A stretch of 64,000 nucleotides of DNA, from contig CBDBGZ010000009.1 in NCBI GenBank assembly GCA_965205425.1, positions 1,024,001 to 1,088,000 on the forward strand, in the 5' to 3' direction. Shown here piece after piece: positions 17,137-34,297 of the stretch; positions within the stretch are counted from its first letter, which is position 1; every line of letters starts with the position of its first letter. Source of the stretch: Nitrosopumilus sp. (lineage in GTDB: Archaea > Thermoproteota > Nitrososphaeria > Nitrososphaerales > Nitrosopumilaceae). Below the pieces are notes generated by a model. The model saw only the letters and a list, made by a program, of their open reading frames with translations. It did not search any database and had not been told where the DNA came from. Made by a program: the position numbers and the translations under genes.

Positions 17137-17733
17137 CTAACTTGCCTCTACTTTTTCTTCCTTTGCTGGCTCTTCTTTGCCACCGCTGGCTTTCTTAATT
17201 TCTTCTGTAATCCATTCATCTGCACCAAGGAATGGTTGTCTACATGTAATTCCAATCTTACCCATAGCAGCTGCTTTTCCTAATGATACGGCAGTAATTC
17301 TTGCACGAAGTGTAGAACCAACTTTTAGTGTTCTTCCACTTTGATTTGCTAATATCATTCCAGATTTAACATCACTCTTTAGATAATCATCCATCACTTG
17401 TGATAAGTGAAGTAAAGCATCAGTTGGACCAATTCTTACAAATGCTCCAAAGTCTGTAATATCTACAATTTCACCTTGAACGATTTCTTGTAATTTAGGA
17501 TAAAATGTCAATGCTTCAAATTCGACTTTATGAAATGTTCCACCGTCTCCGGCAATCATTTTTCCCATTTCATCAACTTTAGCGTCTAAAATCATAATGA
17601 TGTATCCTAAATCTGCATTAATCATACTCTCGTACTTTTCTTTGAGAATGTTTACTGCAGCCTTTTTGAGTGTAGTTCCAAATAAGCTTGGAGGAATCCT
17701 AACAACATCAACTAGGGTAGATATAGAAAACAA
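17137..17733 (-). CDS. rpoE: RNA polymerase subunit E' (Rpo7)
   Basis: VRIPP; S1 domain FGAFVRIGP; RQPFLG. Confidence 0.95.
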   Translation of the reverse strand: MFSISTLVDVVRIPPSLFGTTLKKAAVNILKEKYESMINADLGYIIMILDAKVDEMGKMIAGDGGTFHKVEFEALTFYPKLQEIVQGEIVDITDFGAFVRIGPTDALLHLSQVMDDYLKSDVKSGMILANQSGRTLKVGSTLRARITAVSLGKAAAMGKIGITCRQPFLGADEWITEEIKKASGGKEEPAKEEKVEAS

Positions 17734-17871
17734 ATGTACAGTTTTTCTCGAATTTCAATTTATGAATGTTTAGGTGATTTTAGGCTTGAAAATCCAAAGT
17801 TTTTTCTTATTTTTGAAATTAAATTCAATGAAAGATAAGATTTTGTTTGTAATTACGCAAGAGGTCTATTT

Positions 17872-17910
17872 AACTGATCCAACTGATCCAACTGATCCAA
17901 CTGATCCAAC
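17872..17910. repeat. 9-bp tandem repeat AACTGATCC x4.3
   Basis: Read directly; non-coding, at the island's left edge. Confidence 0.9.
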
Positions 17911-18183
17911 ATTATGCCTGAAATTATAAACTCTTTAAACCATTTACGTACAAATTACCAAAATCACGACTAAATTCACTCTTAACTACACATCTAACTG
18001 CATCAAAATCACATCTATTTCATTATTCGTTGGAATTTCATCATTTTACAAATTACTCTAGGCATAAATTAAAAATAATTTACAAATCTAGGCACAACGA
18101 ATAACTCATTTCTAGTCACGATTCGCAATATACCATATCTAAAGAATCCAACGAACAAATAACAGAAAACATGAAACTACGTT

Positions 18184-18266
18184 GTACCTATATCCAAGTG
18201 GTCAAAGGAGACAGTTTACCAAACAGTTACTCCAGTGTTTCGTGGGTTCGAATCCCACCAGGTACA
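18184..18266 (+). tRNA. Atypical or pseudo tRNA, long variable arm, anticodon ACC
   Basis: Acceptor GTACCTA/CAGGTAC + A73; D arm TCC-AAGTGGTCAAA-GGA; anticodon arm ACAGT-TTACCAA-ACAGT (1 mismatch); variable region TACTCCAGTGTTTC; T arm GTGGG-TTCGAAT-CCCAC. Confidence 0.7.
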
Positions 18267-18269
18267 CCT

Positions 18270-19295
18270 GGGTGTGTCCTAAAACTATCCTCTAACATGT
18301 TTTGTAACCCCCATCAAATTAACAACTCGTATGTTGTAACAAATTACACGCAACGCCAACTCTTTTCTTTGAACCAACTTGTTTTTTGATGACAAGCTAT
18401 TTCCAAAGATTCTTTTGAGTACTGCAAATACTGATTCAACAAGTGACCTCTTGTGATAATGTCTGTCAAATTCATCTTGATTGTCCTGGAATAATGTTAT
18501 CATTTTTTTCCATGATGCAGAGCCTTTGGGATTTCTAACTGTGTTCTTCTTTGGTTTGATGTATGGTATCTTTTGCAGAGTAGCTACCATATTGCAAATG
18601 TCTCGTGACAAATATGCAGGATCTGCACAAAAATCACCAATTCCCTTTGGAATGTCTTTGATTAGTTTTTTGAGAATTGGTGCATCACCACGAGTTCCTT
18701 TAGTAATGTCAAAAGATACTATTGCCATGGACTGTATTGCAATTAGGATGTGCAGTTTTAGATATAATTTCTTGGATTTGTGCGTGTTTGTCTTGATGTC
18801 AAACCAAGCCTCACATCTTTTGGTACCAAATCCTGAACTGTCAGGAGCTATGTCTTTTTTTTGATTGGTTCTGTGAGTTTTGCGTTTACCTTTTTCAAAT
18901 AAGGCATTGGAATTCTTTTTAGACTGTCATTAATGACAGTCTTGCTTGGTGCTTTTTTGAGCTCCATTATTTCCAACAGATCCGGCCTTGATCTCAAGTG
19001 GGACTCCATGGAACGATAATCCAATCCAAACTTTACCTTTAGCATTGCACACATTATCTTTGCTTTTGTTGGAAATGCAGGACGTCCGCCTGTCTTTGGT
19101 TCCCATGGTGTATCCATACTCCAAACTGTCTTCTTTACTTTTTCCAAGAATAGAATCTCCTCATCCTTGCGATATGTGCCATATACTTGCCAGTCTCTTT
19201 TTGATTTGTTTTGCATAGTTGTTGTGATTCCATGCGATCAATATGTTACAGAATTGAATAAAATTGTTATATTTGTCTACTTTTAGGACACACCC
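18270..19295 (-). mobile_element. IS5-family insertion sequence
   Basis: 15-bp perfect TIR GGGTGTGTCCTAAAA; 9-bp TSD GGTACACCT at 18261-18269 and 19296-19304. Confidence 0.92.
18285..19216 (-). CDS. IS5-family DDE transposase, two frames joined by a -1 frameshift
   Basis: ORF 18848-19216 ends after A_AAA_AAG. The -1 frame reads DIAPDSSGFG...KLHI...ADPAY...YHKRSLVESVF. Confidence 0.85.
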
Positions 19296-19426
19296 GGTAC
19301 ACCTAAAAGAATTAAATATTATTCAAATAGAGTGAAATTGGTAAACTGTTACACTATGTAACTTTGATGAGGATCAATCAAATGGTTCTCATCATTTTTT
19401 ATTTCCAACTAAATACGTCATACATC

Positions 19427-20746
19427 CAGTAGATGGGAAAGTAACTCAATTTAGATCAAAAACTATCAATTATTCAATCAATCTATTCAGATAGAAAAAG
19501 CTTGATGGAAGTATGTCACTCCATCAAATATGCATTGTACTTCATTTGATACCATGACACACCAAGGTGTAGTACTATCAAAAGCATTTGATATTATCAC
19601 TAAAATAATGTACAATATCTTATTGTTTCCATGCTCTAGTAAAAATAACTCACGGTTCCACAATGCTGATGCACACAATTCTATCATGTCATTGTGTTTG
19701 GGAAATTCATATTCTGAATCTGGATTGAAGAGACTGGCAATGGAATCAGATAATGCTTCTCCAACGGGTTTCATGGTTGAGAAAAATCATATCAAAAATA
19801 TCACAAAAAACAATGCAAATTCAATTACATCGTTCACTGGATAGTACCATATCAAAATTACAAGAATTGGGAGTATTGGAGCAACCAGTTACTGTAGCAA
19901 TTGACAAACATCTAATCCCAAGATATGACAAATTGCCAAATCATTCTTTAATAAAATCAAAATCAAAAAACAGTACTACTCATTTTGAGAGTTACTGCAC
20001 CATGCAGTGCGTTGAAAAAAGAATCAGGGCTCAATTAGGTTGTTATCCTTTGTATGACAACAAATCAAATGCCGGTTTTGTGCGTAAATTACTCTCTGAT
20101 GGCATCAATAATGGAATCAAGATTAAACTATTGCTAGTGGATAGGGAGTTTTTCACAGCTGGAACAATTTCAGAAATAAAACAAAAGAATCTGAAATTTC
20201 TAATGCCTGCAAAAAAGAATTCTCGAATCAAAGATGCCATTTTACAATACGTTAATGGAGATAGAAAGTCAATCTCGCCATACACAATAAAATCATCATC
20301 AGGACATGTAGAATCATTTACTCTAGTTATTCTGCCAAACAAAAATGCAAGAAAAAAATCAGATATTATTGATCAGTATGTTGTGTTTGCAACAAACGTT
20401 TCACCAAAAGAAATATCATATAACATACAAAACATTCCAACTGATTACAAGAAACGTTGGGGAATTGAAACAGGCTATGCATGTGTGGGAAGGTTCAGAC
20501 CAAAAACCACCAGTTCAAACCAATCCATAAGATTGTTGTATTTTTACTATTCATTGATTTTGTACAATGCATGGATAATTGCTAATTTGATTATCTCAGA
20601 AGAAACCAATGTACAAAATCACAAACCAATAATATCAATTGAAATTCTCAAATATTTCTTTGTAAAGATAATTATTCATTACTTTAGAAATAACAAAAAT
20701 AATTATTTTCTAGAATGTGTAATTTGATGTACTTTCCCATCTACTG
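19427..20746 (+). mobile_element. ISH3-like (IS4-related) insertion sequence
   Basis: 17-bp perfect TIR CAGTAGATGGGAAAGTA; no TSD visible. Confidence 0.88.
19530..20727 (+). pseudogene. ISH3-like transposase, frameshifted near 19770
   Basis: VAIDKH, LVDREF and YKKRWGIETGY motifs; N-terminus lies in another frame (+1 shift needed). Confidence 0.8.
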
Positions 20747-21081
20747 AGAATGGAGACGACGATGATTCCTGGCACAAAGAGACATTTGATTTGTTCCCTT
20801 ACAAGTCCAGTAATTTCAAGGTACGATTTGTAGCATCAATGAGCTCTCCAAGTGAAGATGTAGGCATTGATGATGTAAAGATTACATCACAAAGTACTTT
20901 ATCTACAACTGTGAAAAAGTTTTATGGCGGCCAGCAAATGCTAATGTCACAAAATGTTACTACTACTACTGATATAGATATTGTACCAGGAACCATAACC
21001 ATTGGTGCCACTACAACTGATGGCCAAGTTGGATTTGTCACAGCAGGCCATGTTTTAAAACCTACTAATTTGTCCAGTTAA
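20747..21081 (+). pseudogene. Remnant of a secreted S1-type serine protease with a beta-sandwich domain
   Basis: Frame open from the IS end: NGDDDDSWHKETFDL...VGIDDVKIT...GFVTAGHV, then a stop; no catalytic Ser motif. Confidence 0.6.
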
Positions 21082-21190
21082 TTCTTAGACTTTAGAAAAT
21101 AATTGGACAAATGAAAGCCAAAAAGGGAAAATCCTAAGAGGCTTGGAAAAATGGATTATAACGCCATGCGTTTGCTGGGTATATGAAATT

Positions 21191-21346
21191 TTAGAAGTTC
21201 CAATACTTGATTAAAACTAAAATCAAGAAAATAATCAAACCAGTTTCAAATATTCCAATTCTAAATATCTGAAACTTGCCAACTCTCTTAATCCATTTTA
21301 CTAGAAAACTATCCTTTAACTTGAATTTCTTAGTAGAGTTTTGCAT
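21191..21346 (-). CDS. Putative 51-aa viral membrane protein
   Basis: MQNSTKKFKLKDSFLVKWIKRVGKFQIFRIGIFETGLIIFLILVLIKYWNF; not in the ORF track. Confidence 0.45.
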   Translation of the reverse strand: MQNSTKKFKLKDSFLVKWIKRVGKFQIFRIGIFETGLIIFLILVLIKYWNF

Positions 21347-21566
21347 ATACTAATAATTGATTTGATTGATAATTAATGTATCTGAATTTTTTTAATTTAT
21401 GATATTCGTTAGTCTTTGTACGGTGCTTTTTCCTGGTCCTAAAAATTGTCCTGGTGTTTCAATTGAAAATAGGCACGATTTTGAATGTTTTTTGAATTTG
21501 GTTTTAGTGCTGTTTTTGGCATGTTTGAATTCAGTTACAATATAACGATATTAGATAAATTACAAC

Positions 21567-21845
21567 TCATAATTTATTATGTGGCGTGTCTTTTTTCATT
21601 TCTTTTTCAAGTCTTCTAGCCTGATGAATGCCCATATATGCTACAGTGAAATTTTTTGCATGTGGTCTAAGAGACCTTTTAGTTTTATTTACTGTGAAAT
21701 CGTCTTTTTGATAGTATGATTGTAACCTGTGGCGTAATACTTTAGATACCCCTACATATTCCAGTTTTCTATTTTTGTTGAAAATTTGGTAATATCCTGA
21801 AACATTTTTTATTTTTGATATATTTTCTTTGTTTAGTTTTTTCAT
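21567..21845 (-). CDS. GIY-YIG nuclease domain protein
   Basis: SGYYQIF...EYVGVSKVLRHRLQSY and a downstream Glu (RRLEK). Confidence 0.75.
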   Translation of the reverse strand: MKKLNKENISKIKNVSGYYQIFNKNRKLEYVGVSKVLRHRLQSYYQKDDFTVNKTKRSLRPHAKNFTVAYMGIHQARRLEKEMKKDTPHNKL

Positions 21846-21851
21846 TTTATC

Positions 21852-21989
21852 TTAACCAATTCTAAACATACCAGTATTGCATTTGGCACATTTGCCTTTA
21901 GTTGCAGGTCTACCGTTCTTCATCTTTGTTTTGGTTGCACCTTTCATAGTTCTCTTTGATTTGCACTTTACACAATATCCCATAGTCAT
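21852..21989 (-). CDS. DUF5679-like zinc-ribbon protein (proviral copy)
   Basis: MTMGYCVKCKSKRTMKGATKTKMKNGRPATKGKCAKCNTGMFRIG; similar to the ORF at 45987-46133. Confidence 0.85.
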   Translation of the reverse strand: MTMGYCVKCKSKRTMKGATKTKMKNGRPATKGKCAKCNTGMFRIG

Positions 21990-22026
21990 AGTATTGTATG
22001 ATTATAACTGATATATGAGGATAAAA

Positions 22027-23700
22027 TCAGTTCGACAATACGACATCAGCAGATATTTTTAGATTCCCCAATAGTTGTAATACTGCCCTTAGTTGTGATT
22101 GTCCTTTTGGCAATACTAGACCACTGGTAAATTCATTGATGTTTTGAGTTGTTTTTCCAGCGGTGTTTATCCGTCCTATTGAATTAAGAATTTCAAACCA
22201 TTCATCATTTGATCCTTTGGATTCTAGTCCTATTTTTATGGATTTTGCACTAGTATCTACTGCTTCATGTTTTGAGAATTGTAATAATGATGGATTGTTT
22301 TCTACTTGTTTTACAGTTAGCAAAAAATTTCTTAGATTTTCTGGAACATAATCGGGGAATAGCACTTCAAAGAATCCCATAACTCGATTCGGTAAATATT
22401 CCATTCCGTTAACTGGTAGATTATTTAGAATTTCAACAAGTCCTACATGAGGATCTTCAATTGGTATATCGAATAAAGAACCGTTAATATCTCGTTTTCG
22501 TAAAGACCAGTTAATACTATCAGCTTCTAAACAGTCCTCAACTATTAAACTGAATGTAATTATTTTTTTAAATCTCAAATACCTAAACGTAGTTGAGAAA
22601 TTAATATCTAAATTTGAATCATCATAGTTATCTTTCTCAAATAATAAAGTTGGATTTGAAAAGTCTTGAGAGTTTGAACCCTCAACTGTTATTTTATTTA
22701 CATTGTTTGAGAAAATTCTTTTTCCCACATAGGAATATTCATATCTGGAATGCTGTGTTGTATGACGACCATTCCTAAAATCAGCAGTAAAGAAAGTTGA
22801 ATAAAAAATACTGGAAAGATAAACAAACTTTACATCTATATCAAAGTCAGATGATGAAGATAAAACAAAGTTAAATTCTTTATTTACATTTAGTAGGTTG
22901 TTTGTGTCAAATATTGTAATATCACTATCATATACGCCATTAGCATTAGTGGGATTAAATAGATTGTTTGATTCATCATAGAATCCGAATCCAGTGGGTA
23001 GACCTGTAGTGATTCTATCAGTGTTTACTTCATAATCCCAAGACATACCATTTTTAGATTCAACAGTACCAGATTTTGTTAATACTGAATTATTCCCCCA
23101 GTAACCGTTTTGTAGTTTGTCTAAAAAGTCAACAGGTGGTGCATTGTGAATTTCAGATATTATTAATGCCGAACCAGCAGATCTAGACAGTATCGTAAAT
23201 GACAGATTAGAATATCCTGTAATATCAAATTCTTTATAATATTTTTCTGATACTTTATTCATGTATGAATTATCAAATAGCGATATTTTTTTTGATATTT
23301 GGGATAGTTGCTGGATTGTAAATGGTATGAGAATTGAAGATATGGGAATGTCCTCAAAGTCCAGTTCCAAACTTATTCCTAATTTGGATTCAGAAATTTC
23401 AGAATCATCATAATTATGTATGTATATTTTCATCTCATCATCCCTATCTAAAAATGGAATTTCCGCCCTGATTGGGAATTGAGAGTATTTTAGAAGTTTG
23501 TTGTTGTTTAGGTTGTTCTCGTATACTGTAATTCCGTTTTTTGTGATTCTGACCTTGCCGAATTTGGCAAAATAGATGTTGGGCAATAGATCAAACTTGT
23601 TTATCCAAAGTCGTGATTTTGTAATGTTTTGGTATTCGAATGTTTTTACTGGTGATGTTGATTGAACCTGTAACAGTTCGTTAAATGTGTCGTATGTCAT
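22027..23700 (-). CDS. Putative viral vertex/spike protein
   Basis: 557 aa, beta-rich and N/S/F-rich; discoidin-like VEGSN...FRYLRF; N-terminus similar to ORF 24209-24652. Confidence 0.55.
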   Translation of the reverse strand: MTYDTFNELLQVQSTSPVKTFEYQNITKSRLWINKFDLLPNIYFAKFGKVRITKNGITVYENNLNNNKLLKYSQFPIRAEIPFLDRDDEMKIYIHNYDDSEISESKLGISLELDFEDIPISSILIPFTIQQLSQISKKISLFDNSYMNKVSEKYYKEFDITGYSNLSFTILSRSAGSALIISEIHNAPPVDFLDKLQNGYWGNNSVLTKSGTVESKNGMSWDYEVNTDRITTGLPTGFGFYDESNNLFNPTNANGVYDSDITIFDTNNLLNVNKEFNFVLSSSSDFDIDVKFVYLSSIFYSTFFTADFRNGRHTTQHSRYEYSYVGKRIFSNNVNKITVEGSNSQDFSNPTLLFEKDNYDDSNLDINFSTTFRYLRFKKIITFSLIVEDCLEADSINWSLRKRDINGSLFDIPIEDPHVGLVEILNNLPVNGMEYLPNRVMGFFEVLFPDYVPENLRNFLLTVKQVENNPSLLQFSKHEAVDTSAKSIKIGLESKGSNDEWFEILNSIGRINTAGKTTQNINEFTSGLVLPKGQSQLRAVLQLLGNLKISADVVLSN

Positions 23701-23882
23701 AGTATTACCTGATAGATTGCGGTGATTGATGATATTATGGCAATTGAGATTAAGATAAGGTCTTTCTTTGTCTTTTCTTTTCGCTGTTTTTCCTTAATAT
23801 GATTGTCTAGTTTTTCCTCCATCTTTGATAATCTGTTGCACAGATCGTCTAGTTTTGTCAGTATCATTTGTTCCAAAGTCAT
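23697..23882 (-). CDS. Small coiled-coil protein with C-terminal TM helix (viral)
   Basis: 61 aa; heptad region followed by LILISIAIISSITAIYQVIL. Confidence 0.65.
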   Translation of the reverse strand: MTLEQMILTKLDDLCNRLSKMEEKLDNHIKEKQRKEKTKKDLILISIAIISSITAIYQVIL

Positions 23883-23899
23883 CTAATACACATCCAGTT

Positions 23900-24208
23900 T
23901 TATTTTACTACTCTGAAATCATTGGCAGAAAATATGCGGACTATTGTTCCAGCCTTTAGTTTAAAGCGATATGCAAGTTCTGTTGATGTTGGTATTTCCT
24001 CATCATTTACGTCTAAAATTCCTGAAACTAACGCCCTAATTTCTGCATCTCTTCGGTTGCGGGTAGTTTGGTCATTTGCAACTATCCATAATCCAGTATT
24101 TCCATTTGTTGATGAATCCGCGATTTTTTTTGCGTTCTCGTATGATGGCATGTCTCTGGATACGATAAATGGGTGATGGGGATTCGGTAAGTTTGGAATG
24201 AGTGGCAT
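23900..24208 (-). CDS. Viral hypothetical protein
   Basis: 102 aa; abuts the upstream gene's stop. Confidence 0.65.
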   Translation of the reverse strand: MPLIPNLPNPHHPFIVSRDMPSYENAKKIADSSTNGNTGLWIVANDQTTRNRRDAEIRALVSGILDVNDEEIPTSTELAYRFKLKAGTIVRIFSANDFRVVK

Positions 24209-24652
24209 TTAATCACCAATTCCAACTAGAACAGAAGTCGTAATTTTTGCTTTATCTGTTCCATTCCATACAAAAAACGACAGTTCGGAATCTCTTTTGA
24301 ATTTTCGCTCCCTGTCAAATTTCAATGTTAGATTTTTGGTCAGTTTGAAATCACCAGTTTTATCATTCTCAAAAATTACAACACCACCCAATTCTATTTT
24401 TAACATTCCCTTTTCTTGGAATGTATCATCAAAAGTCAAGGATAGTTCAGTGATCAGAATATCCTTGTTGTATGGGTTTTTGAATGTCAAATTGGGTTTT
24501 AATGATAATTTTGAATCTGTCGATTCGATTGTAAATAACTTTGAATATGAATAGTCCAATACATCACGAACCAGTAAAACATTCAAAGTTGATGATAGTC
24601 TAGACTTTATTGATTCAAGTAATGTTATGTCGGTTATGTTTTCAGTAGACAT
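24209..24652 (-). CDS. Putative viral minor capsid / penton-like beta protein
   Basis: 147 aa with alternating beta pattern; paralogous to the N-terminus of 22027-23700. Confidence 0.55.
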   Translation of the reverse strand: MSTENITDITLLESIKSRLSSTLNVLLVRDVLDYSYSKLFTIESTDSKLSLKPNLTFKNPYNKDILITELSLTFDDTFQEKGMLKIELGGVVIFENDKTGDFKLTKNLTLKFDRERKFKRDSELSFFVWNGTDKAKITTSVLVGIGD

Positions 24653-24658
24653 GATTTA

Positions 24659-25327
24659 TCAAAAATTGCTATAATTCCTCGTGTATCTTGTAGCTCTTTG
24701 TGCTTCGGCTTGTTTTCGTTGTGCGGTTGCTTTACTGTTTGTGCTAGAATGAGTTGGCACGTTTCGTCCACCTCTGGTAGGTCTTTTGGATGTAGTTGGT
24801 CCTAATGATGAATTAGTTCTATTAGTTGACAATGAGTTGATTCTATCGGTGATGCTTGTTCTTACGCCTGTAGAGTTGCGTTGTATTTGTCCACGTCTAA
24901 TATCTGATGATGTAACGCTAGGATTGTTTTTGTATACGGTTCTTGATGATGTGCCAAGATTTGGAACGTAGGTATTTTGTGATTGTTGTTGAATTTGTGA
25001 ATATGAGTATGGGATAGTTGGTTTTGGCGGTGATTTTACAGTTGGTATGTTATGATAGATTTGTTGGTTTTGTTGTGGTTGTTGTGGTTGTTGTTGTGGG
25101 TTTTGATTTGGGTTATCTGTAGATTCAGGTGCAGTAGTATCAGGTGATGTATTATCTGAACTGCCACCAGAACCAGTAATCTTATTGTCAAGGAATTTGT
25201 TTAGTCTTGCATAGGCATTTTCTCTTTGAGAGTACAAGGCAAGTAATACAATTGCAATACCGCCAACTACTACAAGACCCGAACCCAAGGCAAATGTCTT
25301 TTTGGCAATTTTTAGTTTATTAGCCAT
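24659..25327 (-). CDS. Viral membrane protein with low-complexity Q/N/S/T region and Arg-rich tail
   Basis: N-terminal TM ALGSGLVVVGGIAIVLLALY; disordered basic C-terminus. Confidence 0.65.
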   Translation of the reverse strand: MANKLKIAKKTFALGSGLVVVGGIAIVLLALYSQRENAYARLNKFLDNKITGSGGSSDNTSPDTTAPESTDNPNQNPQQQPQQPQQNQQIYHNIPTVKSPPKPTIPYSYSQIQQQSQNTYVPNLGTSSRTVYKNNPSVTSSDIRRGQIQRNSTGVRTSITDRINSLSTNRTNSSLGPTTSKRPTRGGRNVPTHSSTNSKATAQRKQAEAQRATRYTRNYSNF

Positions 25328-25643
25328 CTTGTCTCCTGTTTTGTGATAGTGAGAATCGATTACCGAACCGTTGGTTTTTTGTTTGGTGTGGTTCTCCAGT
25401 AAGTGGTTTTTGTGGTGGTGCTGAATCAGATTTTAATGCCAAATATGCAGATTCCCCAAATATTGCAGTGTATAGATTGCCACCTAATCCCCTGGAATCG
25501 ATTTTTTTCCTTTGCTCTAAATCATATTCTTTTGTGTCTTTGTATGTTGAATCTAGTTTAGATTGGATTGTATCTTTGTATGAGTATAGAACAGCGATTC
25601 CACCGATTAGCACGATTCCGCCAAAAAATAAAGGCAAAACCAA
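25320..25643 (-). CDS. Viral membrane protein
   Basis: N-terminal TM LPLFFGGIVLIGGIAVLY; directly downstream of the MCP. Confidence 0.65.
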   Translation of the reverse strand: MVLPLFFGGIVLIGGIAVLYSYKDTIQSKLDSTYKDTKEYDLEQRKKIDSRGLGGNLYTAIFGESAYLALKSDSAPPQKPLTGEPHQTKNQRFGNRFSLSQNRRQDG

Positions 25644-25645
25644 GG

Positions 25646-26577
25646 TTATTCACCAGTAATGATATATCTCTTGTATTGACGAATTGCGTTCTCTTTGGAA
25701 GTAGTAGGTTTGGCAGTTATGAACTTCCACTTTATTGCATCAACATTTACGTTTGCTAGTCCACCGTTTCGTATATCTGCCCAGTCAATCATTACTATGC
25801 CTGTAGGATTATCTGATTCAAATCCAAAGTCGGCTTTTTGTGATCTTTGCAAGTCGGCAAAAAAGTCATGATAAATTGCTTCACCGCCACCCTTGACGTT
25901 CTCTAGTTTGATTTGTTTGATAACATCATTGTCATAAGTGGGATCTCCATCAGTAATATTCTTGAGACCTAAAAGAATAGTTTGAAGGTGTAAAGCCGAT
26001 ACTGGTCTAACTGAAACTGGTAATTCATCAGCAGGGTAGGATTTGTATTCTCGGGATATTTCATCTTGTGAAACGCCTTCGTTAATTCTAGTTAAATTAT
26101 CAAGGATTGATTGTATTTGATTTTCACCTTGTCCGTTGTCATAGACCTCAATGATAGATGCCCTTACCTTTGTTTTGGAATCAATTTCAGTGTTATTTGC
26201 AGTTCCCAAAATATCTGAAATTGAACCCCATGTTAGTTTTAGTTGCAATGAGCCTAGTAATTGTGCTGGGAGTAATGCCCTTACATCACTGATTAGATTT
26301 CTCTCAAAAGCAAAGTCTATGGGAATTTCGACATGGAATGTTTTTGAAGTATCTGCATCAGGTATTGAAAATGTGTCCTTGTGAATTTTTACACCATAGC
26401 CGAATCTTAACGCCTCGGCATAGGTTTTCAAATCACAGTCAAAGATATTATCATTTCCGTTAAGAATGACTTCAATTCTTTTGAGTATGTTTAGAATGTC
26501 GCCTTTTTTTACAGTTGTTCCTTTTGTTGTTCCTGTTTTTACTGTAACATCCAAATGTAATGATAAACGTCTAAGTA
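25646..26577 (-). pseudogene. Double jelly-roll major capsid protein (STIV B345-like), N-terminus cut by a MITE
   Basis: Frame extends to the MITE (LRRLSLHLDVTV); motifs LNILKRIEVILNG, IPIDF, LPAQLLGSLQLKLTWG, FADLQRSQKADF, IDWADIRNGGL, DAIKWKF. Confidence 0.78.
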
Positions 26578-26749
26578 CAGTAGATGGGAAAGTAAAATTT
26601 GATTCTTTGAATTTCGGTTAGTTCATACTGATTTCATGACGATATTTTTGTCAGTGCTATAATTTGAGCATGATATTTTCATAGGCACAAAATTAACATA
26701 AAAAAACTAGTGAAAATCGTACAACTGAAATCTACTTTCCCAAGTACTG
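26578..26749. mobile_element. 172-bp MITE with ISH3-like ends
   Basis: Left end CAGTAGATGGGAAAGTA is identical to the TIR at 19427; right end matches 15/17. Confidence 0.85.
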
Positions 26750-26787
26750 TACATTATCGGCCTTAAATCAATTTCAAACATCTCTGT

Positions 26788-27174
26788 ATGGTAGTAATTA
26801 TGTCAGTAACTAAATCAAAACCTCTTTCCTCAAAACAACTTCTCAAAGACCCCTCAAAAATGGAAAATGTAGAGAAATTAATTGAACTAGTAAAATTAAA
26901 AAACCCATCAATCGTATTCATCACTGGTCCTATTCACTCAGGTAAATCTACTCTAATAGACATGATAAAAGATTCTAGTTTTCACACAACCATCCTCATT
27001 GAACCAAGACTAAACCACACTGAAATACACCATGATACCATTGATGGGAATCTTCTCATAGAATGTCAATTAGACTATGATAAACTTCCTGGCTTGATCA
27101 GAACTGATATTCCAAACACAATACTTGTAAAAATGGAATATCCCAATTTCATCAAATCAATCCAAGTTCTCTAA
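26788..27174 (+). CDS. Short P-loop NTPase-like protein
   Basis: VFITGPIHSGKST Walker A; only 128 aa. Confidence 0.55.
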   Translation: MVVIMSVTKSKPLSSKQLLKDPSKMENVEKLIELVKLKNPSIVFITGPIHSGKSTLIDMIKDSSFHTTILIEPRLNHTEIHHDTIDGNLLIECQLDYDKLPGLIRTDIPNTILVKMEYPNFIKSIQVL

Positions 27175-27304
27175 CATTCTGTATTTTTACTTTGTTTCCC
27201 AACCCCAAATAACCATCAACACTCTTTGATGCTTTAAAATCATTTCTGATTCTATTGCATTGCAATCATTTTATTGTACAGACAAACTTTCATTTTCAAT
27301 TCAT

Positions 27305-28450
27305 TAGTTAAGGCATTAAATATTTGAATAATTTCACAACTCGAACGTCTCCATTATCTAATCTCTTCTGCATGTGTTTTCTCATCTCAGTTCCATTTGC
27401 AAAGAATGTATTGGCATTACCATTTTTCTCTTCTCTCCACTGTACCTCAATTGGATTGAGTTCTGGGGTGTATGCAGGAAAATATCTTATGATTACATTT
27501 CTTTTTGATACCTTGAGAAATTCTTTTACTCTGACACTTTTGTGGTATGATGCATTGTCTGCAAATAATAACAGTTTCTTACCAAATTGTTTCTGCAAGG
27601 ATTTTAAGAAATCAAGAAATGAGTCTGTGTTTGATTTATCATAGAACCTACAAAAAAATACGCCGTCATCCCCCAATGCACCAAATGATTGAAATTTTTC
27701 TCGAGTGTAATTAATTGGCGTGGTAATGTTATTCTCTGCAAGATACCATCCGCGCTTTATGTTAGGTGCTATCTTGTTTGTTGACTCATCCAGACATAGT
27801 GTGATATGTCCCAATTTGGAATATTTTTTGATACTCCTTTTTGCGTTTTTTTAAAACGGGTTTGTTCCTCTTTTGAGGCTGATTTGTGATGTGTGGGACG
27901 TGGTTTTTTTGATGAGAATCCAATTCTGTGCAGCAATTCACGCATTCCTCTTGCAGAGTATAGGGTGTTGTATTTTTTATTCACATGTGTAATTACCATT
28001 CTTATACTCCACATGAATTGGTTAAATCCAAACTTTTCTGGACCTGAAATCAGATCATTTCTTAATGATACTAGCTGTTTTTCATTTAGAAAACATCTAG
28101 AACCAGAATATTTCTTGCGGTGTGATGCAGATATTCCCTCTTCATCCATTCGATTTAGCCAGTAGGACAGAGTTGATGGTATGACATCCAGACTTGCACA
28201 TATCACAGAATACGGAATATTTTGTTTTCTTAGTATTGCAGCCTTTAATCTTATCTTTGCTTTTGCATTTTTTTCATTCTTGCATACTTTTCTTAAAAAA
28301 TTAATGCTTGTACCTTTCATGAATTGATTTCCAGAGGAAACCTTGGATTGTCTTGTACTCTTTGACATGGTTTCATGAATTGATTCTACGATCTAGATCT
28401 TTTGAGTTAAAATACTTGACAGTTTATTCAAAATTTATATGCCTAAACTA
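27305..28450 (-). mobile_element. IS630-family insertion sequence
   Basis: Imperfect 26-bp TIR TAGTTAAGGCATTAAATATTTGAATA (21/26). Confidence 0.88.
27308..28368 (-). CDS. IS630 transposase, HTH and DDE ORFs joined by a -1 frameshift
   Basis: TTT AAA AAA ACG slippery site near 27850; CLDES, ADNASYH, YTPELNPIE. Confidence 0.85.
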
Positions 28451-29455
28451 ATGAATCATGGTTTCTCTCTTGTGCGATGTCACATGCTCTCCAAATATTC
28501 TTTTGAATACAGAGAATACTCCCTCTACAATCCATCTATCCCCATAGCTTACGCTGAGCTTCCATAGATCCAAGTTATACAATTGTGCCAAAACGGACTT
28601 TCTCCGAGGATAACAATCAGTTACAACTGATGAGTTTTTTCTTGTTTTAATTGCAGGTAGAATATCATTATCATAATACAGATATGAAAAATTATCCTTT
28701 GTATCATATGCACCATCAGCCAAAGTTTTAGTGACATTGCCAAACTGTTTTGATTGCTCAACTAGCGATATGAAATGTTTTGAATCATGTGACTTGTCAT
28801 CTGTAATATCAATCCCTGTGATCTGTTTAGATTTCACATCTACTGCCACATGAATTTTAAGAAATCCTCTTCTCTTCTGCCATTTCTGTCTCATCCACTC
28901 ACCTCTGTTTGCAACCTTGATTCCAGTTGAGTCTATTGCAATGACAATGTCTTTTCCTAGTTTTGGATTCATCTTGATGTCAAGTTTGTTGACACGTTTC
29001 CAAATGGCAGAATATGTGGGAGTCTTTGTTTTGGATTGGAGGTGTGATTTTATCAGACCTTCTGTTTGTCTGAATGGAAGATGCAAATAGAGATGACAGT
29101 ATCCTAGTGCCTCCATGAAGGATTCAGGATAGACAAATCGATGACCTTCCTTTTTGTGATTCATCTCTTTTAGTTCCATACTCCATGATTCCATTGCGTC
29201 AAAGGACAACATGATTTCTCCACGTCTAACTAGTGTTTTGTTGTAATTTTTCCAGTTTCTGTTCATGGAATAATACAGAATATTCTGATCTAAAGCTTGG
29301 GTGATGAAATTAATTGGATCAACTAGTCATGTTGGGAAACACAGCAAGGTATATCATAAACAATGCTGGGATTCTATGCGTTACTGATATTCAAAAAATA
29401 AAAAATAAAATCTTACTATTTCTGTGTAATTAGTTTTGAAAATAATACATCCTTG

Positions 29456-29590
29456 TATAGCGAAAAGATAAAGTTCGTGAACTAAAAATCATCAAAAAAC
29501 TAGAGATTAGATGATTTTACCTAAGGTAAATACGAATAAACAATCTGAAACACCTTGAAAATAGTTCATGAACATATGCTTCTCGCTATA
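29456..29590 (+). mobile_element. 135-bp IS630-type MITE, copy 1 (terminal TA included)
   Basis: Ends TATAGCGAAAAGATAAAGTTCGTGAACTA and TAGTTCATGAACATATGCTTCTCGCTATA; inverted copy at 35297. Confidence 0.92.
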
Positions 29591-29659
29591 TAACTAAAAA
29601 TGTTTGAAATGGATGTTTTATCAGTATATGTTATTAACTGACATTGATTTTTTATAATA

Positions 29660-31324
29660 TTGCATCTTATACTGTTAGTTTTTGTAGTGCTGATTGTATT
29701 TTTTTCTGTGTTTTCAATTTTTGATGTGGATGCAAGATGTTCAGATAACTATCCGTGCAGAGGTTCTACACAAACTCCACTAGCAGTAGATTATTGGAAA
29801 CAGTCAGATACTGTAGTTCTCGGAAAAGTCATCTCAAAATTATATGGTTCTAATGCATTTGATAACTTTGATCATAACAATTACAAAAATCCCTGTAATT
29901 TAGATGATAAATCAAAATATGTAGAACCTTTCAAGGTACGAATAGAAGTTGAAAAAAGTTACAAGGGTATGGTATTTTTCAAGTATCTTGATGTTTATGG
30001 AACAAAAATAATTGATGAAAGACAATTCTCTAAAGGATATGTGATAAATCCTGAGATTGGAGAACAAGTTCTTTTGTATATGAATCATCATGAATCAATC
30101 CCTTTTGGCAGTTGTGATTTAAAAAATATCTACAAAGTACATTCCACACAAGGCTCTATTTGGAAATGGAATTTTGATGACTACAAACCAGATATTTATC
30201 CCGGAGATGTAAAAATCCCTCCATTTGAAGAACAGTTATTGCATTATGATGTATCTGATCATTATCAAAATTATACACACGTTAGTATTTTTAATTATGA
30301 AAGATTAGTTTGTCCATTGGGTGAAGAATTAATGTTCAAGAGTGTGAACCCTAACGATGTACCTTTTTGCATTAATTACAAGGATGCACCTAGACTAGAA
30401 CAAATAGGATTTGCATTTCGTGTACATGACTGGAATAGTTGGAATACGTTTGGTGAGAATTTTTATGATGAATCAAAAAAATATTCATATATCAAACCAT
30501 TTAATTTTCCAAAAGATCTTATAATGAAATATGATTCATACCCAATTAATGAAAAATTAAAAAAGATTTTATCAAAAATAACAATACGTTCAGATGAGAC
30601 AAAACAATTTGAAAAATTAAAAAATATAGATGACATGCAGATATCTTCTTTCAATTCATCTATTATGATAATGCCTGATGGTTTATTGCATGTACCATTA
30701 GATAATTATAAAGATCATAGGTTTTTTATAGATGAATTTTTTAATGAACAAAAACCTTTGTTTGGTTATGAAAAATATTTTCCTAAACAAATTCCATCAG
30801 GATATGAATTAAAGTTCATAAAGCCTGCCCAATATCTTTATGAAGATGTAATTGCAGTATATGCCCCAATTTCTGCGAACATTGAAACATCTGATAGTTT
30901 TACTGATATTTTTCAACAAAATGGAATAGTTTTTAGATTTACAGACGATGGTGACTATTTTGAACATCTTCAAAAACTTGATCAATTATGGGGTGATGCA
31001 TTTCCTGAAATCCCTTCACAGTATGGGGTTTCAGGAGTATATGACAAAGAATCAATTGGGTTTGATCCTGCCAGTACTCCGTGGCCAAATATGAAAATTG
31101 ATTATAATCCAAATACAGTTTATGTTGAATTTCCAAATAAAATCATGGTAAAAATAGAATCATTTGGAGTGGATACCTTTGCTCTGATGGATATGATGAA
31201 CATCGATAATTCATTCAAAGTGAATTTACATGATACAATCTCGTTACAGGACAATTCTAAAGCATTGGTTTTAGATGGTATAGCGACGATCAAAAGTTCG
31301 CAAACATCTTTGCAGGATTTCTAA
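29660..31324 (+). CDS. Secreted protein with TIMP/NTR-like N-terminal motif; 3' end replaced by IS630
   Basis: Signal peptide; C...DYWKQSDTVVLGKVIS; codons after 31279 are IS sequence. Confidence 0.6.
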   Translation: MHLILLVFVVLIVFFSVFSIFDVDARCSDNYPCRGSTQTPLAVDYWKQSDTVVLGKVISKLYGSNAFDNFDHNNYKNPCNLDDKSKYVEPFKVRIEVEKSYKGMVFFKYLDVYGTKIIDERQFSKGYVINPEIGEQVLLYMNHHESIPFGSCDLKNIYKVHSTQGSIWKWNFDDYKPDIYPGDVKIPPFEEQLLHYDVSDHYQNYTHVSIFNYERLVCPLGEELMFKSVNPNDVPFCINYKDAPRLEQIGFAFRVHDWNSWNTFGENFYDESKKYSYIKPFNFPKDLIMKYDSYPINEKLKKILSKITIRSDETKQFEKLKNIDDMQISSFNSSIMIMPDGLLHVPLDNYKDHRFFIDEFFNEQKPLFGYEKYFPKQIPSGYELKFIKPAQYLYEDVIAVYAPISANIETSDSFTDIFQQNGIVFRFTDDGDYFEHLQKLDQLWGDAFPEIPSQYGVSGVYDKESIGFDPASTPWPNMKIDYNPNTVYVEFPNKIMVKIESFGVDTFALMDMMNIDNSFKVNLHDTISLQDNSKALVLDGIATIKSSQTSLQDF

Positions 31325-32365
31325 AGATATAATTTGCAACATCAAGCTTGAATTTTGTCACTCTGAAATATTCGGACACTGCCTTGTTCATCATTGTAAA
31401 CATTGCATAATACTCTGAAACCAACAATGCATATTTGCTTATCTTCCAGCACTGCTCTATCATGTTCAAGTATGGTGATCCCTTTGGCAACCAGATTAAT
31501 TTGACATCTCTATTATTTGCAAGGTATTTCTTTACCTTCTTTGATTTGTGAACTGATGCTCTATCTAAAATGATTACAATCTTGCCGTATTTCTGATGCA
31601 ATTCCTTTAGGTACTCTACAAATGTCACAGCGTTGAATTTGTCATAAACTCTGAATAGTTGATTACCATTTTCTGTAATTGTACCATACACTGCCAGACT
31701 CTCATGTCGTCCTGTATATGGAAGAAATATTCTCTTTGCAACTGGTGACCAGTACTTTTTTCCTGTTTTTGTATCCCTTACAAAGAATGCTTCATCAGCC
31801 ATTGCAATTACAAATCCTTTCTTTTTTAGGCGTGAAATTCTCTTTTTGGTGCGTTGCTGCCAGCTTCTCACAGCAGATATACTTGCATGGTTGATGTGAT
31901 ATTTTTGTGCAGTTTTTGCAGACATGCCGTATTGGTGCATTATCTTTCTGATGTGGGTTATGTGAAATTTTACTCCAGTGGAATAAAAGATACTTTGTTG
32001 CAACATTATGGGGGTAAACAAAGTTAGCATTGCTTTTGACATGATAGCATCCATTCGAGTCTGGGAGATTGTTCTTGGCCTGCCACTTCTTGGGTGGTCG
32101 TAGAGGCCATCTATCTCAAAACGACTCGTCCATTTTCTCACCCAGCTTGTGCAGTGGTGTAATGTCTTTGCAGTGCACTGTATGTCCTTTCCATCCTTTA
32201 GAATCATCAACACTGCAAGCATCCTTACTGCAACCTTGGAGTTTTCTTTTTTGTATGCTGCTTTCAAGTGATTCTAACTTGTTCATCAAATTTTACCATA
32301 CATAGTGATCAAAAAGTTTTTTGTTTTGGAATTATTTAGTTCACGAACTTTATCTTTTCGCTATA
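31279..32365 (-). mobile_element. IS630-family insertion sequence
   Basis: Ends TATAGCGACGATCAAAAGTTCG and CGAACTTTATCTTTTCGCTATA; TA termini. Confidence 0.9.
31290..32267 (-). CDS. IS630 transposase (single ORF)
   Basis: PRSGRP HTH region; MADEA, LDRASVH, GSPYLNMIE. Confidence 0.92.
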   Translation of the reverse strand: MKAAYKKENSKVAVRMLAVLMILKDGKDIQCTAKTLHHCTSWVRKWTSRFEIDGLYDHPRSGRPRTISQTRMDAIMSKAMLTLFTPIMLQQSIFYSTGVKFHITHIRKIMHQYGMSAKTAQKYHINHASISAVRSWQQRTKKRISRLKKKGFVIAMADEAFFVRDTKTGKKYWSPVAKRIFLPYTGRHESLAVYGTITENGNQLFRVYDKFNAVTFVEYLKELHQKYGKIVIILDRASVHKSKKVKKYLANNRDVKLIWLPKGSPYLNMIEQCWKISKYALLVSEYYAMFTMMNKAVSEYFRVTKFKLDVANYIFRNPAKMFANF

Positions 32366-32545
32366 TATTCTATTTTTGGTGTTTCTCGGTTTTGTTCTCA
32401 ACATATAGTCACAGCATGGGCAATGCTTGCCATCCCACCATATGAAAATCTCACATGTGGAGCAGTGCTTTTGTCCCATTGTATAGCGATTAATTCCATG
32501 AACTCTTTTTGCCTTGTGGGATTCACAGGTTCCTTTGCAGACCAT
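32336..32545 (-). CDS. Small Cys-rich protein, C-terminus cut by IS630
   Basis: MVCKGTC...GQKHCSTCEIFIWWDGKHCPCCDYMLRTKPR; the final YSEKIKFVN comes from the TIR. Confidence 0.7.
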   Translation of the reverse strand: MVCKGTCESHKAKRVHGINRYTMGQKHCSTCEIFIWWDGKHCPCCDYMLRTKPRNTKNRIYSEKIKFVN

Positions 32546-32676
32546 GTGGAATTGTACCTGAAAATACAATTTATGAATCTTGAACAATCTTGAATTTAGA
32601 ATAGTGTAGAAAATCAGCATAAGTCGAGTAATATGCTATCCTAGGTTTAAATAAAGTAGACTGACTTTTTGACGCA

Positions 32677-33789
32677 ATGGTTGGAATAGATCAAGTTCTT
32701 GAAAAACTTAGTACTGTAATTGATCCTGATTTGAAAAAAGATATCGTATCAATGGGTATGATTAAAGATTTAGAACTAAATGATGGTAATCTCAAATTTA
32801 CTTTAGAATTAACAACACCTGCATGTCCTTTCAATGTGGAAATTGAAGACGATGTTAGAAAAGCAGTTGCTGAACTTTCTGACTTGAAGAATTTTGATTT
32901 GAATGTAACTGCCAAAGTCATGGAAGGTCGTTCACTTGATGATGACACTGGAATGAAAACTGTCAAAAACATAATTGGTGTTGCAAGTGGAAAAGGTGGA
33001 GTTGGAAAATCAACTGTTTCATTAAACTTAGCTTTGGCATTATCTCAATCTGGAGCCAAAGTTGGTTTACTTGATGCAGATATCTATGGACCTAGTATTC
33101 CATTAATGCTTGGAATGAAAGATGGTTTTATGGAAGTTGAAGATAATAAATTACAGCCTGCAGATTCAAACGGATTAAAAGTTGTATCATTTGGATTTTT
33201 TGCAGATCAATCAAATCAAGCAGCAATTTATCGTGGTCCAATCATATCTGGAATTTTAAAACAATTCCTTGTCGATACAAATTGGTCTGAATTAGATTAC
33301 TTGATTGTAGATTTACCTCCTGGAACTGGTGATATCCCATTAACTCTTGCACAAACTATTCCAATTACGGGAATCCTTGTAGTTACTACACCACAAGATG
33401 TTGCAAGTGATGTTGCAGTTAAAGCAGTTTCAATGTTTGAAAAACTAAATGTTCCAATTATTGGAGTTGTTGAAAATATGAGTCATTTTATTTGTCCAAA
33501 TTGTGATGATAAACACTACATCTTTGGTGAAGGTGGCGCAAAGAAAATCAGTGAACAATTTAACATGCCTTTCTTAGGTGAAGTTCCATTAAATTCTGGA
33601 ATTATGGAAGGTTCTGATTTAGGCAAACCAATTATGATTACAAATCCTGATTCTCCAAGTGCAGAAGCATTTAGAGTTAGTGCAAAAAATATTGCAGCAC
33701 AATGTAGTATTATTGCAGCCAAGCTTCAAGAAGAACTGGAATCTGAAAGTTCTGGTAAAGAACCAACCCCTGAGGCAAGTACAAACTAA
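32677..33789 (+). CDS. apbC: Mrp/NBP35 Fe-S cluster carrier ATPase
   Basis: TPACP, SGKGGVGKST, DLPPGTGD, ENMS...CPNC. Confidence 0.93.
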   Translation: MVGIDQVLEKLSTVIDPDLKKDIVSMGMIKDLELNDGNLKFTLELTTPACPFNVEIEDDVRKAVAELSDLKNFDLNVTAKVMEGRSLDDDTGMKTVKNIIGVASGKGGVGKSTVSLNLALALSQSGAKVGLLDADIYGPSIPLMLGMKDGFMEVEDNKLQPADSNGLKVVSFGFFADQSNQAAIYRGPIISGILKQFLVDTNWSELDYLIVDLPPGTGDIPLTLAQTIPITGILVVTTPQDVASDVAVKAVSMFEKLNVPIIGVVENMSHFICPNCDDKHYIFGEGGAKKISEQFNMPFLGEVPLNSGIMEGSDLGKPIMITNPDSPSAEAFRVSAKNIAAQCSIIAAKLQEELESESSGKEPTPEASTN

Positions 33790-33800
33790 TTTCGATTCCT

Positions 33801-34295
33801 GTGAAATTACCTGAATCTCTTAGAGACCAAATGAAAATTCCTCTAGGGGTGCTTTTACCTGAAAACCATACTCAAAAAAGTGAAATTCAAAAACATCTCT
33901 CAGAAAATTCGTATCTAATTGCTGTTGGTGATAGAACTACTGAAAAAATGATAAATTTTGATTTAATTCCATCATTGCAAATTATTGACGGTCAAGAGAA
34001 ACGAGAAAAAAGAGACCCTCCAAAGTTAGAAAATGCAATTGAATTGACTGTTGATAACCCTGCAGCTGAAATCACTTCTCAAAGTATTTCTGTAATCCAA
34101 AAAGCATTTACCATGAATTCCCCAGTAAGGATTTTTGTAAATGGGGAGGAAGATCTTTTAGTTCTTCCAGTATGTGTCCATGCTCCTGAAAATTCTGTTG
34201 TCATGTATGGTCAGCCAAATGAAGGATTGGTAATAGTCAATATTACTACCGAAATTAGAAATAAAGCACAAAGCCTACTTGATTTAATGGAATAA
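33801..34295 (+). CDS. GTP-dependent dephospho-CoA kinase (DUF359)
   Basis: VGDRT, NPAAEI, GEEDL, YGQPNEG. Confidence 0.88.
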   Translation: MKLPESLRDQMKIPLGVLLPENHTQKSEIQKHLSENSYLIAVGDRTTEKMINFDLIPSLQIIDGQEKREKRDPPKLENAIELTVDNPAAEITSQSISVIQKAFTMNSPVRIFVNGEEDLLVLPVCVHAPENSVVMYGQPNEGLVIVNITTEIRNKAQSLLDLME

Positions 34296-34297
34296 TT

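Follow-up and report, generated by a model that had tools for sequence, protein, structure and literature searches.

A tRNA gene with a leucine-type body and a glycine anticodon on an accessory island of a Nitrosopumilus archaeon

INTRODUCTION

Natural tRNAs whose body and anticodon do not match are the clearest exceptions to faithful decoding, and the well-studied cases are few: the nematode nev-tRNAs, the bacterial allo-tRNAs and the anticodon variants of human tRNA-Ala or tRNA-Ser. Here we analyze a gene of this kind from an archaeon, a long-arm tRNA gene with an ACC anticodon that we call tRNA X. It lies at positions 18184-18268 on the + strand of a 64-kb stretch of Nitrosopumilus DNA, hereafter the window, which corresponds to C9:1024001-1088000 in an assembly of 2.2 Mb and 9 contigs, with 33% G+C and rich in insertion sequences (IS).

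The nematode nev-tRNA-Gly(CCC) is derived from tRNA-Leu, is weakly expressed and charged only with leucine, and decodes GGG as leucine in vitro (PMC3333845). The nev-tRNAs are termed nematode-specific in the same source and target rare codons. Like nev-tRNA-Gly, tRNA X is a class II tRNA whose body is closest to tRNA-Leu, keeps the Leu marks, carries a non-cognate Gly anticodon and comes in addition to a full tRNA-Gly set. The two differ in host, an animal in one case and a Nitrosopumilus archaeon, outside the nematode lineage, in the other. They also differ in the codons concerned, since CCC reads the rare GGG whereas the family of tRNA X has ACC or GCC, which would read GGU and GGC, common codons here. 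Finally, nev-tRNA-Gly is conserved throughout its lineage whereas the family of tRNA X is patchy and island-borne, with members in 3 of 151 Nitrosopumilus species genomes. The likeness is one of analogy, not of common descent.

The allo-tRNAs (Mukai et al. 2017, PMC5389517) share with this family a long arm, a mismatch between anticodon and identity, a sporadic distribution and frequent proximity to toxin-antitoxin or transposon genes. They have an 8/4 or 9/3 cloverleaf (acceptor/T stem), are mostly of Ser identity and are bacterial, whereas tRNA X is Leu-type, archaeal and folds as 7/5. The 7/5 fold and A73 characterize the subfamily to which tRNA X belongs, while a second subfamily, B, folds as 8/4. 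Mukai et al. suspected a non-translational role for many allo-tRNAs (PMC5389517). No archaeal Leu-type group with Gly anticodons is described in the available text of that paper, and the open-access literature that we searched holds no description of archaeal tRNAs of such a kind. As reported below, a Leu-type tRNA with a Gly anticodon recurs across distant archaeal genomes and metagenomes, repeatedly beside defence genes.

RESULTS AND DISCUSSION

The tRNA X gene and its identity marks

18184..18268, + strand: tRNA X, a long-arm (class II) gene, anticodon ACC; A73 (18266) is the last base of its body, and CC follows (ARAGORN, Rfam tRNA model, structure drawing)
18218..18220, + strand: anticodon ACC in the loop TT-ACC-AA (18216-18222), which would pair with the Gly codon GGU; C35, C36, A37 and A38 are invariant in 12 aligned family members
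18228..18241, + strand: variable region TACTCCAGTGTTTC, 14 nt, with a short arm (A-T, C-G, then a T.T mismatch), the loop CCAG, then TGT-TTC

ARAGORN, a check proposed in an earlier note on this sequence, called a long-arm tRNA-Gly(acc) of 85 nt at 18184-18268 on the + strand. The Rfam model RF00005 matched 18184-18266 over its entire length (model positions 1-71 of 71) with an E-value of 2.7e-6 against the 64-kb window and one of 1e-8 against the local stretch; a full-length cloverleaf is thus combined with a score, 44.8 bits, above the gathering threshold of 29. The acceptor stem GTACCTA/CAGGTAC forms six of its seven pairs, A7.C66 being open both in the sequence and in the ARAGORN drawing. 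Next come U8 and A9, a 3-bp D stem (TCC/GGA) with the D loop AAGTGGTCAAA, an anticodon stem (ACAGT/ACAGT) with four of five pairs and a central A.A mismatch, the variable region and a perfect T arm (GTGGG-TTCGAAT-CCCAC). The discriminator A73 at 18266 is followed by CCT. Altogether 18 of the 20 stem pairs are intact, and the tertiary-contact bases U8, A14, G18, G19 and those of the T loop are all kept. The earlier note had read the gene in the same way, as a cloverleaf with a perfect T arm, a 3-bp D stem, a long variable region, A73 and a TT-ACC-AA loop, with one mismatch each in the acceptor and anticodon stems and an ACCT end, and every one of these elements is present.

A reading with a hidden intron, which could turn the gene into a class I tRNA or change its anticodon, was rejected. 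With introns allowed, ARAGORN returned the same long-arm call, and the sole alternative anticodon stem, ACAGT/AGTGT, contains a G.G mismatch, shortens the variable loop to 3 nt and retains ACC. The free-energy fold of bare tRNA X did not reproduce the anticodon arm of the cloverleaf (z = -1.39). Since this minimum-energy fold is unremarkable, it is the covariance model and the relatives, not folding energy, that argue for a tRNA.

Determinants of the leucyl-tRNA synthetase (LeuRS) of H. volcanii are A73, A47c and G47d of the variable loop and U47h at the base of the arm, and those of the glycyl-tRNA synthetase (GlyRS) of A. pernix are C35, C36, C2-G71 and G3-C70 (PMC9976931). tRNA X carries A73, the variable-loop AG (A47c, G47d) and U47h, the 47c/47d/47h numbering being inferred by alignment to the tRNA-Leu genes of the same genome, in which the AG and the subsequent TTC are also found. 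Its anticodon is ACC in place of the NAG or YAA of tRNA-Leu, so that it is Leu-type in the body only. On the Gly side C35 and C36 are present, but the body, with its 14-nt variable region and with U2-A71 and A3-U70, is not the class I body with C2-G71 and G3-C70 of a tRNA-Gly. The proposal of the earlier note that archaeal LeuRS would read A73 and the variable arm agrees with the H. volcanii determinants (PMC9976931), with A73 invariant in six family members and the AG present in 12 of 12.

Comparison with the ordinary tRNA-Leu genes of the genome leads to the same body type. tRNA-Leu(UAG), (CAG) and (GAG) share with tRNA X the 3-bp D stem, the D loop GGTCAAA, a YCAG-type loop followed by TTC, and A73, and their T arm is identical to that of tRNA X over 17-21 bases. 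By contrast, the acceptor, D and anticodon stems of tRNA X differ entirely in sequence from those of ordinary tRNA-Leu. Ordinary archaeal tRNA-Leu also has NAG or YAA instead of ACC, usually G37 instead of A37, and a conserved chromosomal site, which tRNA X lacks.

17137..17733, - strand: rpoE' (Rpb7-like RNA polymerase subunit), the conserved left flank of the island (Pfam SHS2_Rpb7-N and S1)
17823..32641, no strand: accessory island with tRNA X, 14.8 kb, absent in relatives L021-L025

Normal tRNA-Gly genes with GCC, UCC and CCC are all found in the same genome. At the syntenic rpoE' site, tRNA X was seen in none of 56 relatives; 55 have no tRNA there at all and one has a different, long-arm Phe(GAA) tRNA. 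With a normal Gly set present and the site empty in relatives, tRNA X is surplus and accessory. It is a real tRNA gene that combines a Leu-tRNA body with a Gly anticodon, and annotation pipelines will label such genes tRNA-Gly and count them as ordinary isoacceptors.

Relatives are found by structure

BLAST with tRNA X returned T-arm matches only, in 61 relatives as well as in 400 genomes of the host family, and no relative within 85% identity was found in these two sets or in metagenome contigs. Similarly, an exact 27-mer of tRNA X had no match in metagenome and viral contigs. Family members surfaced only with a covariance model and with degenerate patterns. The model built from tRNA X alone, run on 150 genomes of the genus, gave ordinary tRNA-Leu 57-64 bits and placed three long-arm tRNAs with Gly anticodons at or above this level: one with ACC in G031 (71.9 bits), one with GCC in G408 (67.3) and one with ACC in G397 (64.1). 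Each of these combines the long arm with a 3-bp D stem, the D loop GGTYAAA and A73. Their acceptor stems pair throughout, with wholly different sequences.

We then searched with a degenerate pattern made up of the D loop, nine unspecified positions, YYRCCAA, 20-24 further unspecified positions and the T loop. It matched 12 loci in the metagenome collection, 10 of which are long-arm tRNA-Gly with ACC or GCC according to ARAGORN, and had no match in viral contigs. Among Nitrosopumilaceae it matched 3 of 401 genomes, all of them Nitrosopumilus of 2.2-2.5 Mb, and it matched none of 302 genomes from 26 other genera. The G031 contig, with 67% G+C, encodes core archaeal proteins (Trm1, fibrillarin, RpoD, SBDS, exosome subunits); judging from its sequence, it belongs to another archaeon than Nitrosopumilus. 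With this contig included, the hosts of the family range from 27% to 67% G+C.

Two further patterns were run on 151 genomes of the genus. The loose pattern CCAA...GGTTCRAATCC gave 15 matches, four of them family members and three of them Ser-type Phe(GAA) tRNAs with introns, arranged in tandem in G447; the other eight lack the family fold and look like chance, several apparently lying in coding sequence. When positions 32-36 were left free, 5 of the 151 genomes matched, four with ACC or GCC and one with UUC (Glu). Since four of the five carry Gly anticodons although the anticodon was free, the Gly anticodon was not imposed by the search itself. The tRNA with the Glu (UUC) anticodon, Leu-like and long-armed with the anticodon loop CTTTCAA, lies at G236:C1:290302-290357.

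Two subfamilies with a Leu-type body

Subfamily A consists of tRNA X, the G397, G408 and G031 copies, L174 (identical to L180) and L179, with a 7/5 cloverleaf and A73 invariant in all six. In the alignment of these six, 95.8% of stem cells pair and 17 of 20 pairs have changed on both sides, a result reached by none of 500 shuffles. Each member is a sound cloverleaf despite a mutual identity of 62-75%. Subfamily B consists of L169, L170, L172, L176 and L177 (identical to L178), which have an 8-bp acceptor stem and a 4-bp T stem (ARAGORN) and a U discriminator; one compensatory change, U1.G to U1-A, favours the 8/4 register. We excluded L171, below the Rfam cut-off and with unpaired ends, from the covariation counts. 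Over the whole family, Rfam scores are 34.6-56.6, with tRNA X in the middle of the range.

Across the 12 aligned members U8, G18, G19, the T loop, C35, C36, A37, A38 and the TTC before the T stem are invariant. The variable-loop AG is found in all 12 within differing surroundings (CCAG, TTTAG, TAAG, TCAG, TTAGT, GCAG). At position 34, six members have A and the other six have G; U and C do not occur. As far as the aligned genes tell, subfamily A keeps the whole archaeal Leu identity set. As for the Gly acceptor pairs, tRNA X and G397 are without them, and in G031 and L179 the A. pernix Gly set is complete. When a model (R2) was built from four members, its 29 best matches in other genera were all ordinary tRNA-Leu(UAG), which makes the family body Leu-type; for the same reason R2 was rejected as a detector, as it does not separate the family from ordinary tRNA-Leu.

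The earlier note had asked whether homologues carry a normal Leu, Ser or Tyr anticodon, as expected if tRNA X were simply a decaying Leu tRNA. They carry ACC or GCC, on intact and co-varying Leu-type cloverleaves, and simple decay is thus ruled out for the family.

Most members lie in accessory DNA, some of them behind AbiL genes

Six of seven distinct family contexts are accessory DNA with transposases or defence genes. In G408 the tRNA is flanked by an IS110 transposase on one side and a Type ISP restriction-modification enzyme on the other; in G397 it lies between core genes and an IS1595 transposase with a giant surface protein. L174 adjoins an IS66/IS240-like transposase, L179 adjoins DACNV-DAC and AAA_17/nucleoside-deoxyribosyltransferase-like genes, and the G031 copy sits among core genes.

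L177:4989-6797 (= L178), L172:1892-3720 and L170:437-1067, all genes on one strand: unit of AbiLi ATPase, AbiLii (RloB-like) and an 8/4 long-arm tRNA-Gly with ACC or GCC (metagenome)

On these three independent contigs the subfamily B tRNA follows a two-gene AbiL operon on the same strand, 27-45 nt past the AbiLii stop. AbiLi is an ATPase (PADLOC, 1.5e-62) and AbiLii is RloB-like (Pfam PF13707 and PADLOC). The AbiL proteins of the three contigs are 43-81% identical, while the tRNA and its flanks stay conserved. The conserved flank after the tRNA reads TCTTAGTGTAAACT, and the L177 unit lies between the MatE and SurE core genes of an archaeon.

We found no AbiL homologue in the genome of tRNA X, and no protein common to its island and the G397, G408 or metagenome loci. 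The common theme is accessory, conflict-related DNA and not one fixed partner.

The island of tRNA X

17812..17868, + strand: 57-bp end remnant of another repeated element at the left island edge; five other genome copies extend leftward into the common element
~17872-17909: four tandem AACTGATCC units directly after the 57-bp remnant (sequence)
18270..19295, - strand: IS5-like IS of 1026 bp with a broken DDE transposase (Pfam DDE_Tnp_1 and DUF772), inserted 3 bases past A73
19426..20747, + strand: second IS, 1.32 kb, ~30 genome copies (genome BLAST, annotation)

The left flank of the island is well conserved, rpoE' being 90-99% identical across the 80 relative loci kept, which are mostly from Nitrosopumilus. 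In all five close relatives compared (L021-L025), the DNA upstream of rpoE' abuts the homologue of window 32642-34419; this direct joining defines 17823-32641 as a 14.8-kb insertion, and tRNA X sits 360 bp inside its left edge. One of the two readings offered in the earlier note was an island- or virus-borne gene: its island part stands, with an insertion absent from five relatives, and its viral part finds no support, with no match in two pattern scans of viral contigs.

Besides tRNA X, the island holds at least five IS copies, a GIY-YIG gene, an operon of unknown genes (22027-26554, - strand), a fragment of a P-loop ATPase and a 554-aa open reading frame (ORF). The 1026-bp IS created a 9-bp target duplication, GGTACACCT, at 18261-18269 and 19296-19304. 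It left the tRNA body and A73 intact, and the 3′ trailer is now IS DNA. Whole-genome BLAST gave 17 full copies of this IS, 10 of them with an intact 9-bp duplication, and no target consensus or preference for tRNA ends was seen among the 17. Two findings speak against the further suggestion that tRNA X served as an integration target: the IS has no target preference, and no att-like direct repeat of the 3′ part of tRNA X is present in the window. Reading the gene as an attachment site or as a duplicate of another tRNA was rejected, as BLAST against its own genome gave only T-arm matches of at most 21 bases to other tRNAs.

Within the cargo at 21567-26554 (- strand), a GIY-YIG protein is followed by six ORFs of 557, 61, 102, 147, 222/107 and 302 aa, and the 554-aa ORF lies at 29660-31324 (+ strand). 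Neither the operon at 22027-26554 nor the 554-aa ORF has any match in Pfam, PHROGs or PADLOC, and the 557-aa protein has sub-threshold matches only in a protein atlas. This cargo could be an undescribed defence or mobile-element module. Compared with the same five relatives, a second insertion is found at window 34420-36512 (2.1 kb), with ORFs of 171 and 186 aa without family matches. Two other tRNA genes, which look ordinary, lie farther along the window.

57614-57685: Cys(GCA) tRNA, ordinary, 50.7 bits
61869-61942: Thr(CGU) tRNA, ordinary, 59.8 bits

What tRNA X may do

The reading that we favour, tentatively and somewhat short of calling it probable, is that of a Leu-identity tRNA, predicted to be charged by LeuRS, that would likely read GGU as leucine at a low level. 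The steps would be the following. tRNA X would be transcribed and processed; LeuRS, which does not read the anticodon, would charge it with leucine; and leucyl-tRNA X would be used on the ribosome, turning GGU into leucine at a low level. A34 would stay unmodified, so that mainly GGU is read. The sole protein of the cytidine/deoxycytidylate-deaminase family in the genome matches ComEB/dCMP-deaminase models, below cut-offs, and gave no match to TadA models at an E-value cut-off of 1e-5; as no TadA-type deaminase was found, A34 probably stays A. Such a tRNA may have a role in conflicts between mobile elements and host defence. If tRNA X is leucylated and used, it would mean regulated or weaponised mistranslation in archaea; if not, a new tRNA-shaped partner of defence systems.

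Several observations weigh against leucine charging and use. GGT makes up 2.12% of all codons and 34% of Gly codons in the genome; with so common a codon an efficient Gly-to-Leu misreading would be costly, and tRNA X should be scarce, conditional or unused. The gene has two stem mismatches and an IS as its 3′ trailer, and upstream of it there is a weak A/T-rich stretch where the tRNA genes of the genome have TTTAAA or TTTAAT boxes. A 412-nt contig identical to 17885-18296, and so holding tRNA X, occurs in two sequencing runs of unstated kind, while RNA runs cover only the conserved neighbour rpoE'. The pair counts reported above lean to structure, the members having been found with structure- and anticodon-aware queries. 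Members are 0.64-0.74 identical to tRNA-Leu and 0.62-0.75 to each other; as the family is no closer internally than to tRNA-Leu, repeated independent origin is possible. Finally, C35 and C36 are main GlyRS determinants too, and tRNA X, as judged from these bases, may be glycylated.

This last point leads to an alternative, which we consider unlikely, that tRNA X is a spare tRNA-Gly. GlyRS would charge it through C35, C36 and A73, the Leu-like body would go unseen by a nuclease or toxin directed at tRNA-Gly, and the gene would provide an island or mobile element with immunity or counter-defence while decoding correctly. C35, C36, A37 and A38 are indeed invariant in 12 of 12 members, base 34 is always A or G, the bases that read GGY, and A73 is also the archaeal tRNA-Gly discriminator. 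On the other hand, tRNA X and its nearest relative G397 have U2-A71 and A3-U70 instead of the Gly acceptor pairs. The LeuRS marks (A73, variable-loop AG, TTC) are kept despite full divergence of the stems, and a purely Gly-charged tRNA needs none of them; LeuRS would in any case compete for charging. We know of no nuclease specific for tRNA-Gly, and none was found in the island of tRNA X. The acceptor pairs speak differently in G031 and L179, where the A. pernix GlyRS set of C35, C36, C2-G71 and G3-C70 (PMC9976931) is complete. Defence neighbours, namely the Type ISP restriction enzyme, AbiL and DACNV-DAC, are frequent as this alternative would have it. AbiL-like ATPase/Toprim pairs are related to PARIS, a system with a tRNA-cleaving nuclease that a phage tRNA neutralises (PMC11464382, PMC12409363).

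Another account, also improbable in our view, gives tRNA X no part in translation: it would be a tRNA-shaped RNA or DNA site, acting as a decoy or antitoxin-like partner of defence or toxin genes, or as a dispensable landing site for integration or IS. The accessory nature of six of the seven distinct contexts, with their transposases or defence genes, fits this account, as does the position of the subfamily B tRNA 27-45 nt behind AbiLii on three independent contigs, where the proteins have diverged and the tRNA and flanks are conserved. Bacterial allo-tRNAs near toxin-antitoxin systems or transposons provide a precedent, many being inactive in translation tests (PMC5389517). AbiL, the best case for a protein partner, is inapplicable to tRNA X, whose genome lacks a homologue. 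As to a landing site, tRNA genes are the targets of 39 of 68 integrated elements of Thaumarchaeota (PMC6563490) and an IS did insert at the 3′ end of tRNA X, but that 1026-bp IS is without target preference and an att-site repeat of the 3′ part is absent from the window. Moreover, a mere landing site requires no conserved anticodon, LeuRS marks or compensatory stem changes.

Quite unlikely, finally, is a dead copy: whatever the other members do, tRNA X would be left over among IS debris, either silent or unprocessed, and on its way to becoming a pseudogene. The A7.C66 and anticodon-stem A.A mismatches, the want of a clear TATA box at -25 to -35, unlike in most tRNA genes of the genome, the 3′ trailer replaced by an IS, the IS remnant that bounds the upstream DNA 315 bp away, an island full of broken genes with at least five IS copies, and the lack of any relative found within 85% identity would agree with it, but the Rfam score of 44.8 is in the middle of the family range of 34.6-56.6, 18 of 20 stem pairs and the conserved tertiary-contact bases are intact, the IS insertion spared the body and A73, and a mismatch at the same anticodon-stem pair in G397 suggests a tolerated feature and not fresh damage. 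The copy X may nevertheless be silent.

Returning to leucine charging, one extension of it is a long shot that we consider very doubtful. Leucine-charged, Gly-reading tRNAs of archaeal defence or mobile islands might work with tRNA-directed Abi systems (AbiL), either as a conditional ‘poison tRNA’ wrecking the proteome of the infected cell or as the RNA antidote or bait of the system; tRNA X would then be a stranded copy.

Other unusual tRNA genes and the sample

The two runs with the 412-nt contig also hold variant contigs of the rpoE' region (window 17300-17822), with 5-7 differences each and several-fold to about ten-fold deeper; a closely related strain or species without the exact sequence may share the sample. 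In the assembly itself, the Leu-CAA, Tyr, Thr-UGU, Glu-CUC and Ser-UGA tRNA loci have near-duplicates on other contigs, and contamination is estimated at 5.2%.

C4:165846-165917, C4:166055-166126, C9:454069-454140, C2:54916-54987, C9:254430-254501, C9:711260-711332 and C8:191679-191753: seven unusual Ala-type tRNA genes
C4:165795-165810, C4:166004-166019 and C9:454176-454191 (approximate): 16-nt copies of an anticodon stem-loop
C8:120792-120883, C9:254931-255020, C9:901280-901368 and C9:356124-356210; L065:2338-2429; L128 (G447): long-arm Phe(GAA) or Arg(CCU) tRNAs

Seven extra tRNA genes of 72-75 nt carry Ala marks (G3:U70 and A73, as in the tRNA-Ala of the genome) with anticodons for other amino acids: two of the genes have AAG (Leu), two have GAA (Phe) and three have GUC (Asp). 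Elsewhere the genome has normal tRNAs for Phe and Asp. From their sequences, these genes would be a second kind of mismatch between identity and anticodon in the same cell. In three of them the anticodon stem-loop is repeated on the same strand as a 16-nt copy, about 50 nt upstream of the gene, and this copy changes with the anticodon (AAG or GAA). No such upstream copy was found at tRNA X or at any ordinary tRNA gene of the genome. Upstream of the G408 (L103) and G031 (L102) tRNAs, at about -55 to -30, the variable arm is repeated in part and joined there to the 5′ anticodon arm.

The same genome also contains long-arm, Ser-like Phe(GAA) tRNAs and one long-arm tRNA with G73 and an Arg(CCU) anticodon. 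In another large Nitrosopumilus genome, one long-arm Phe(GAA) copy occupies the hot spot of tRNA X, upstream of rpoE', and G447 has three tandem, intron-containing long-arm Phe(GAA) copies.

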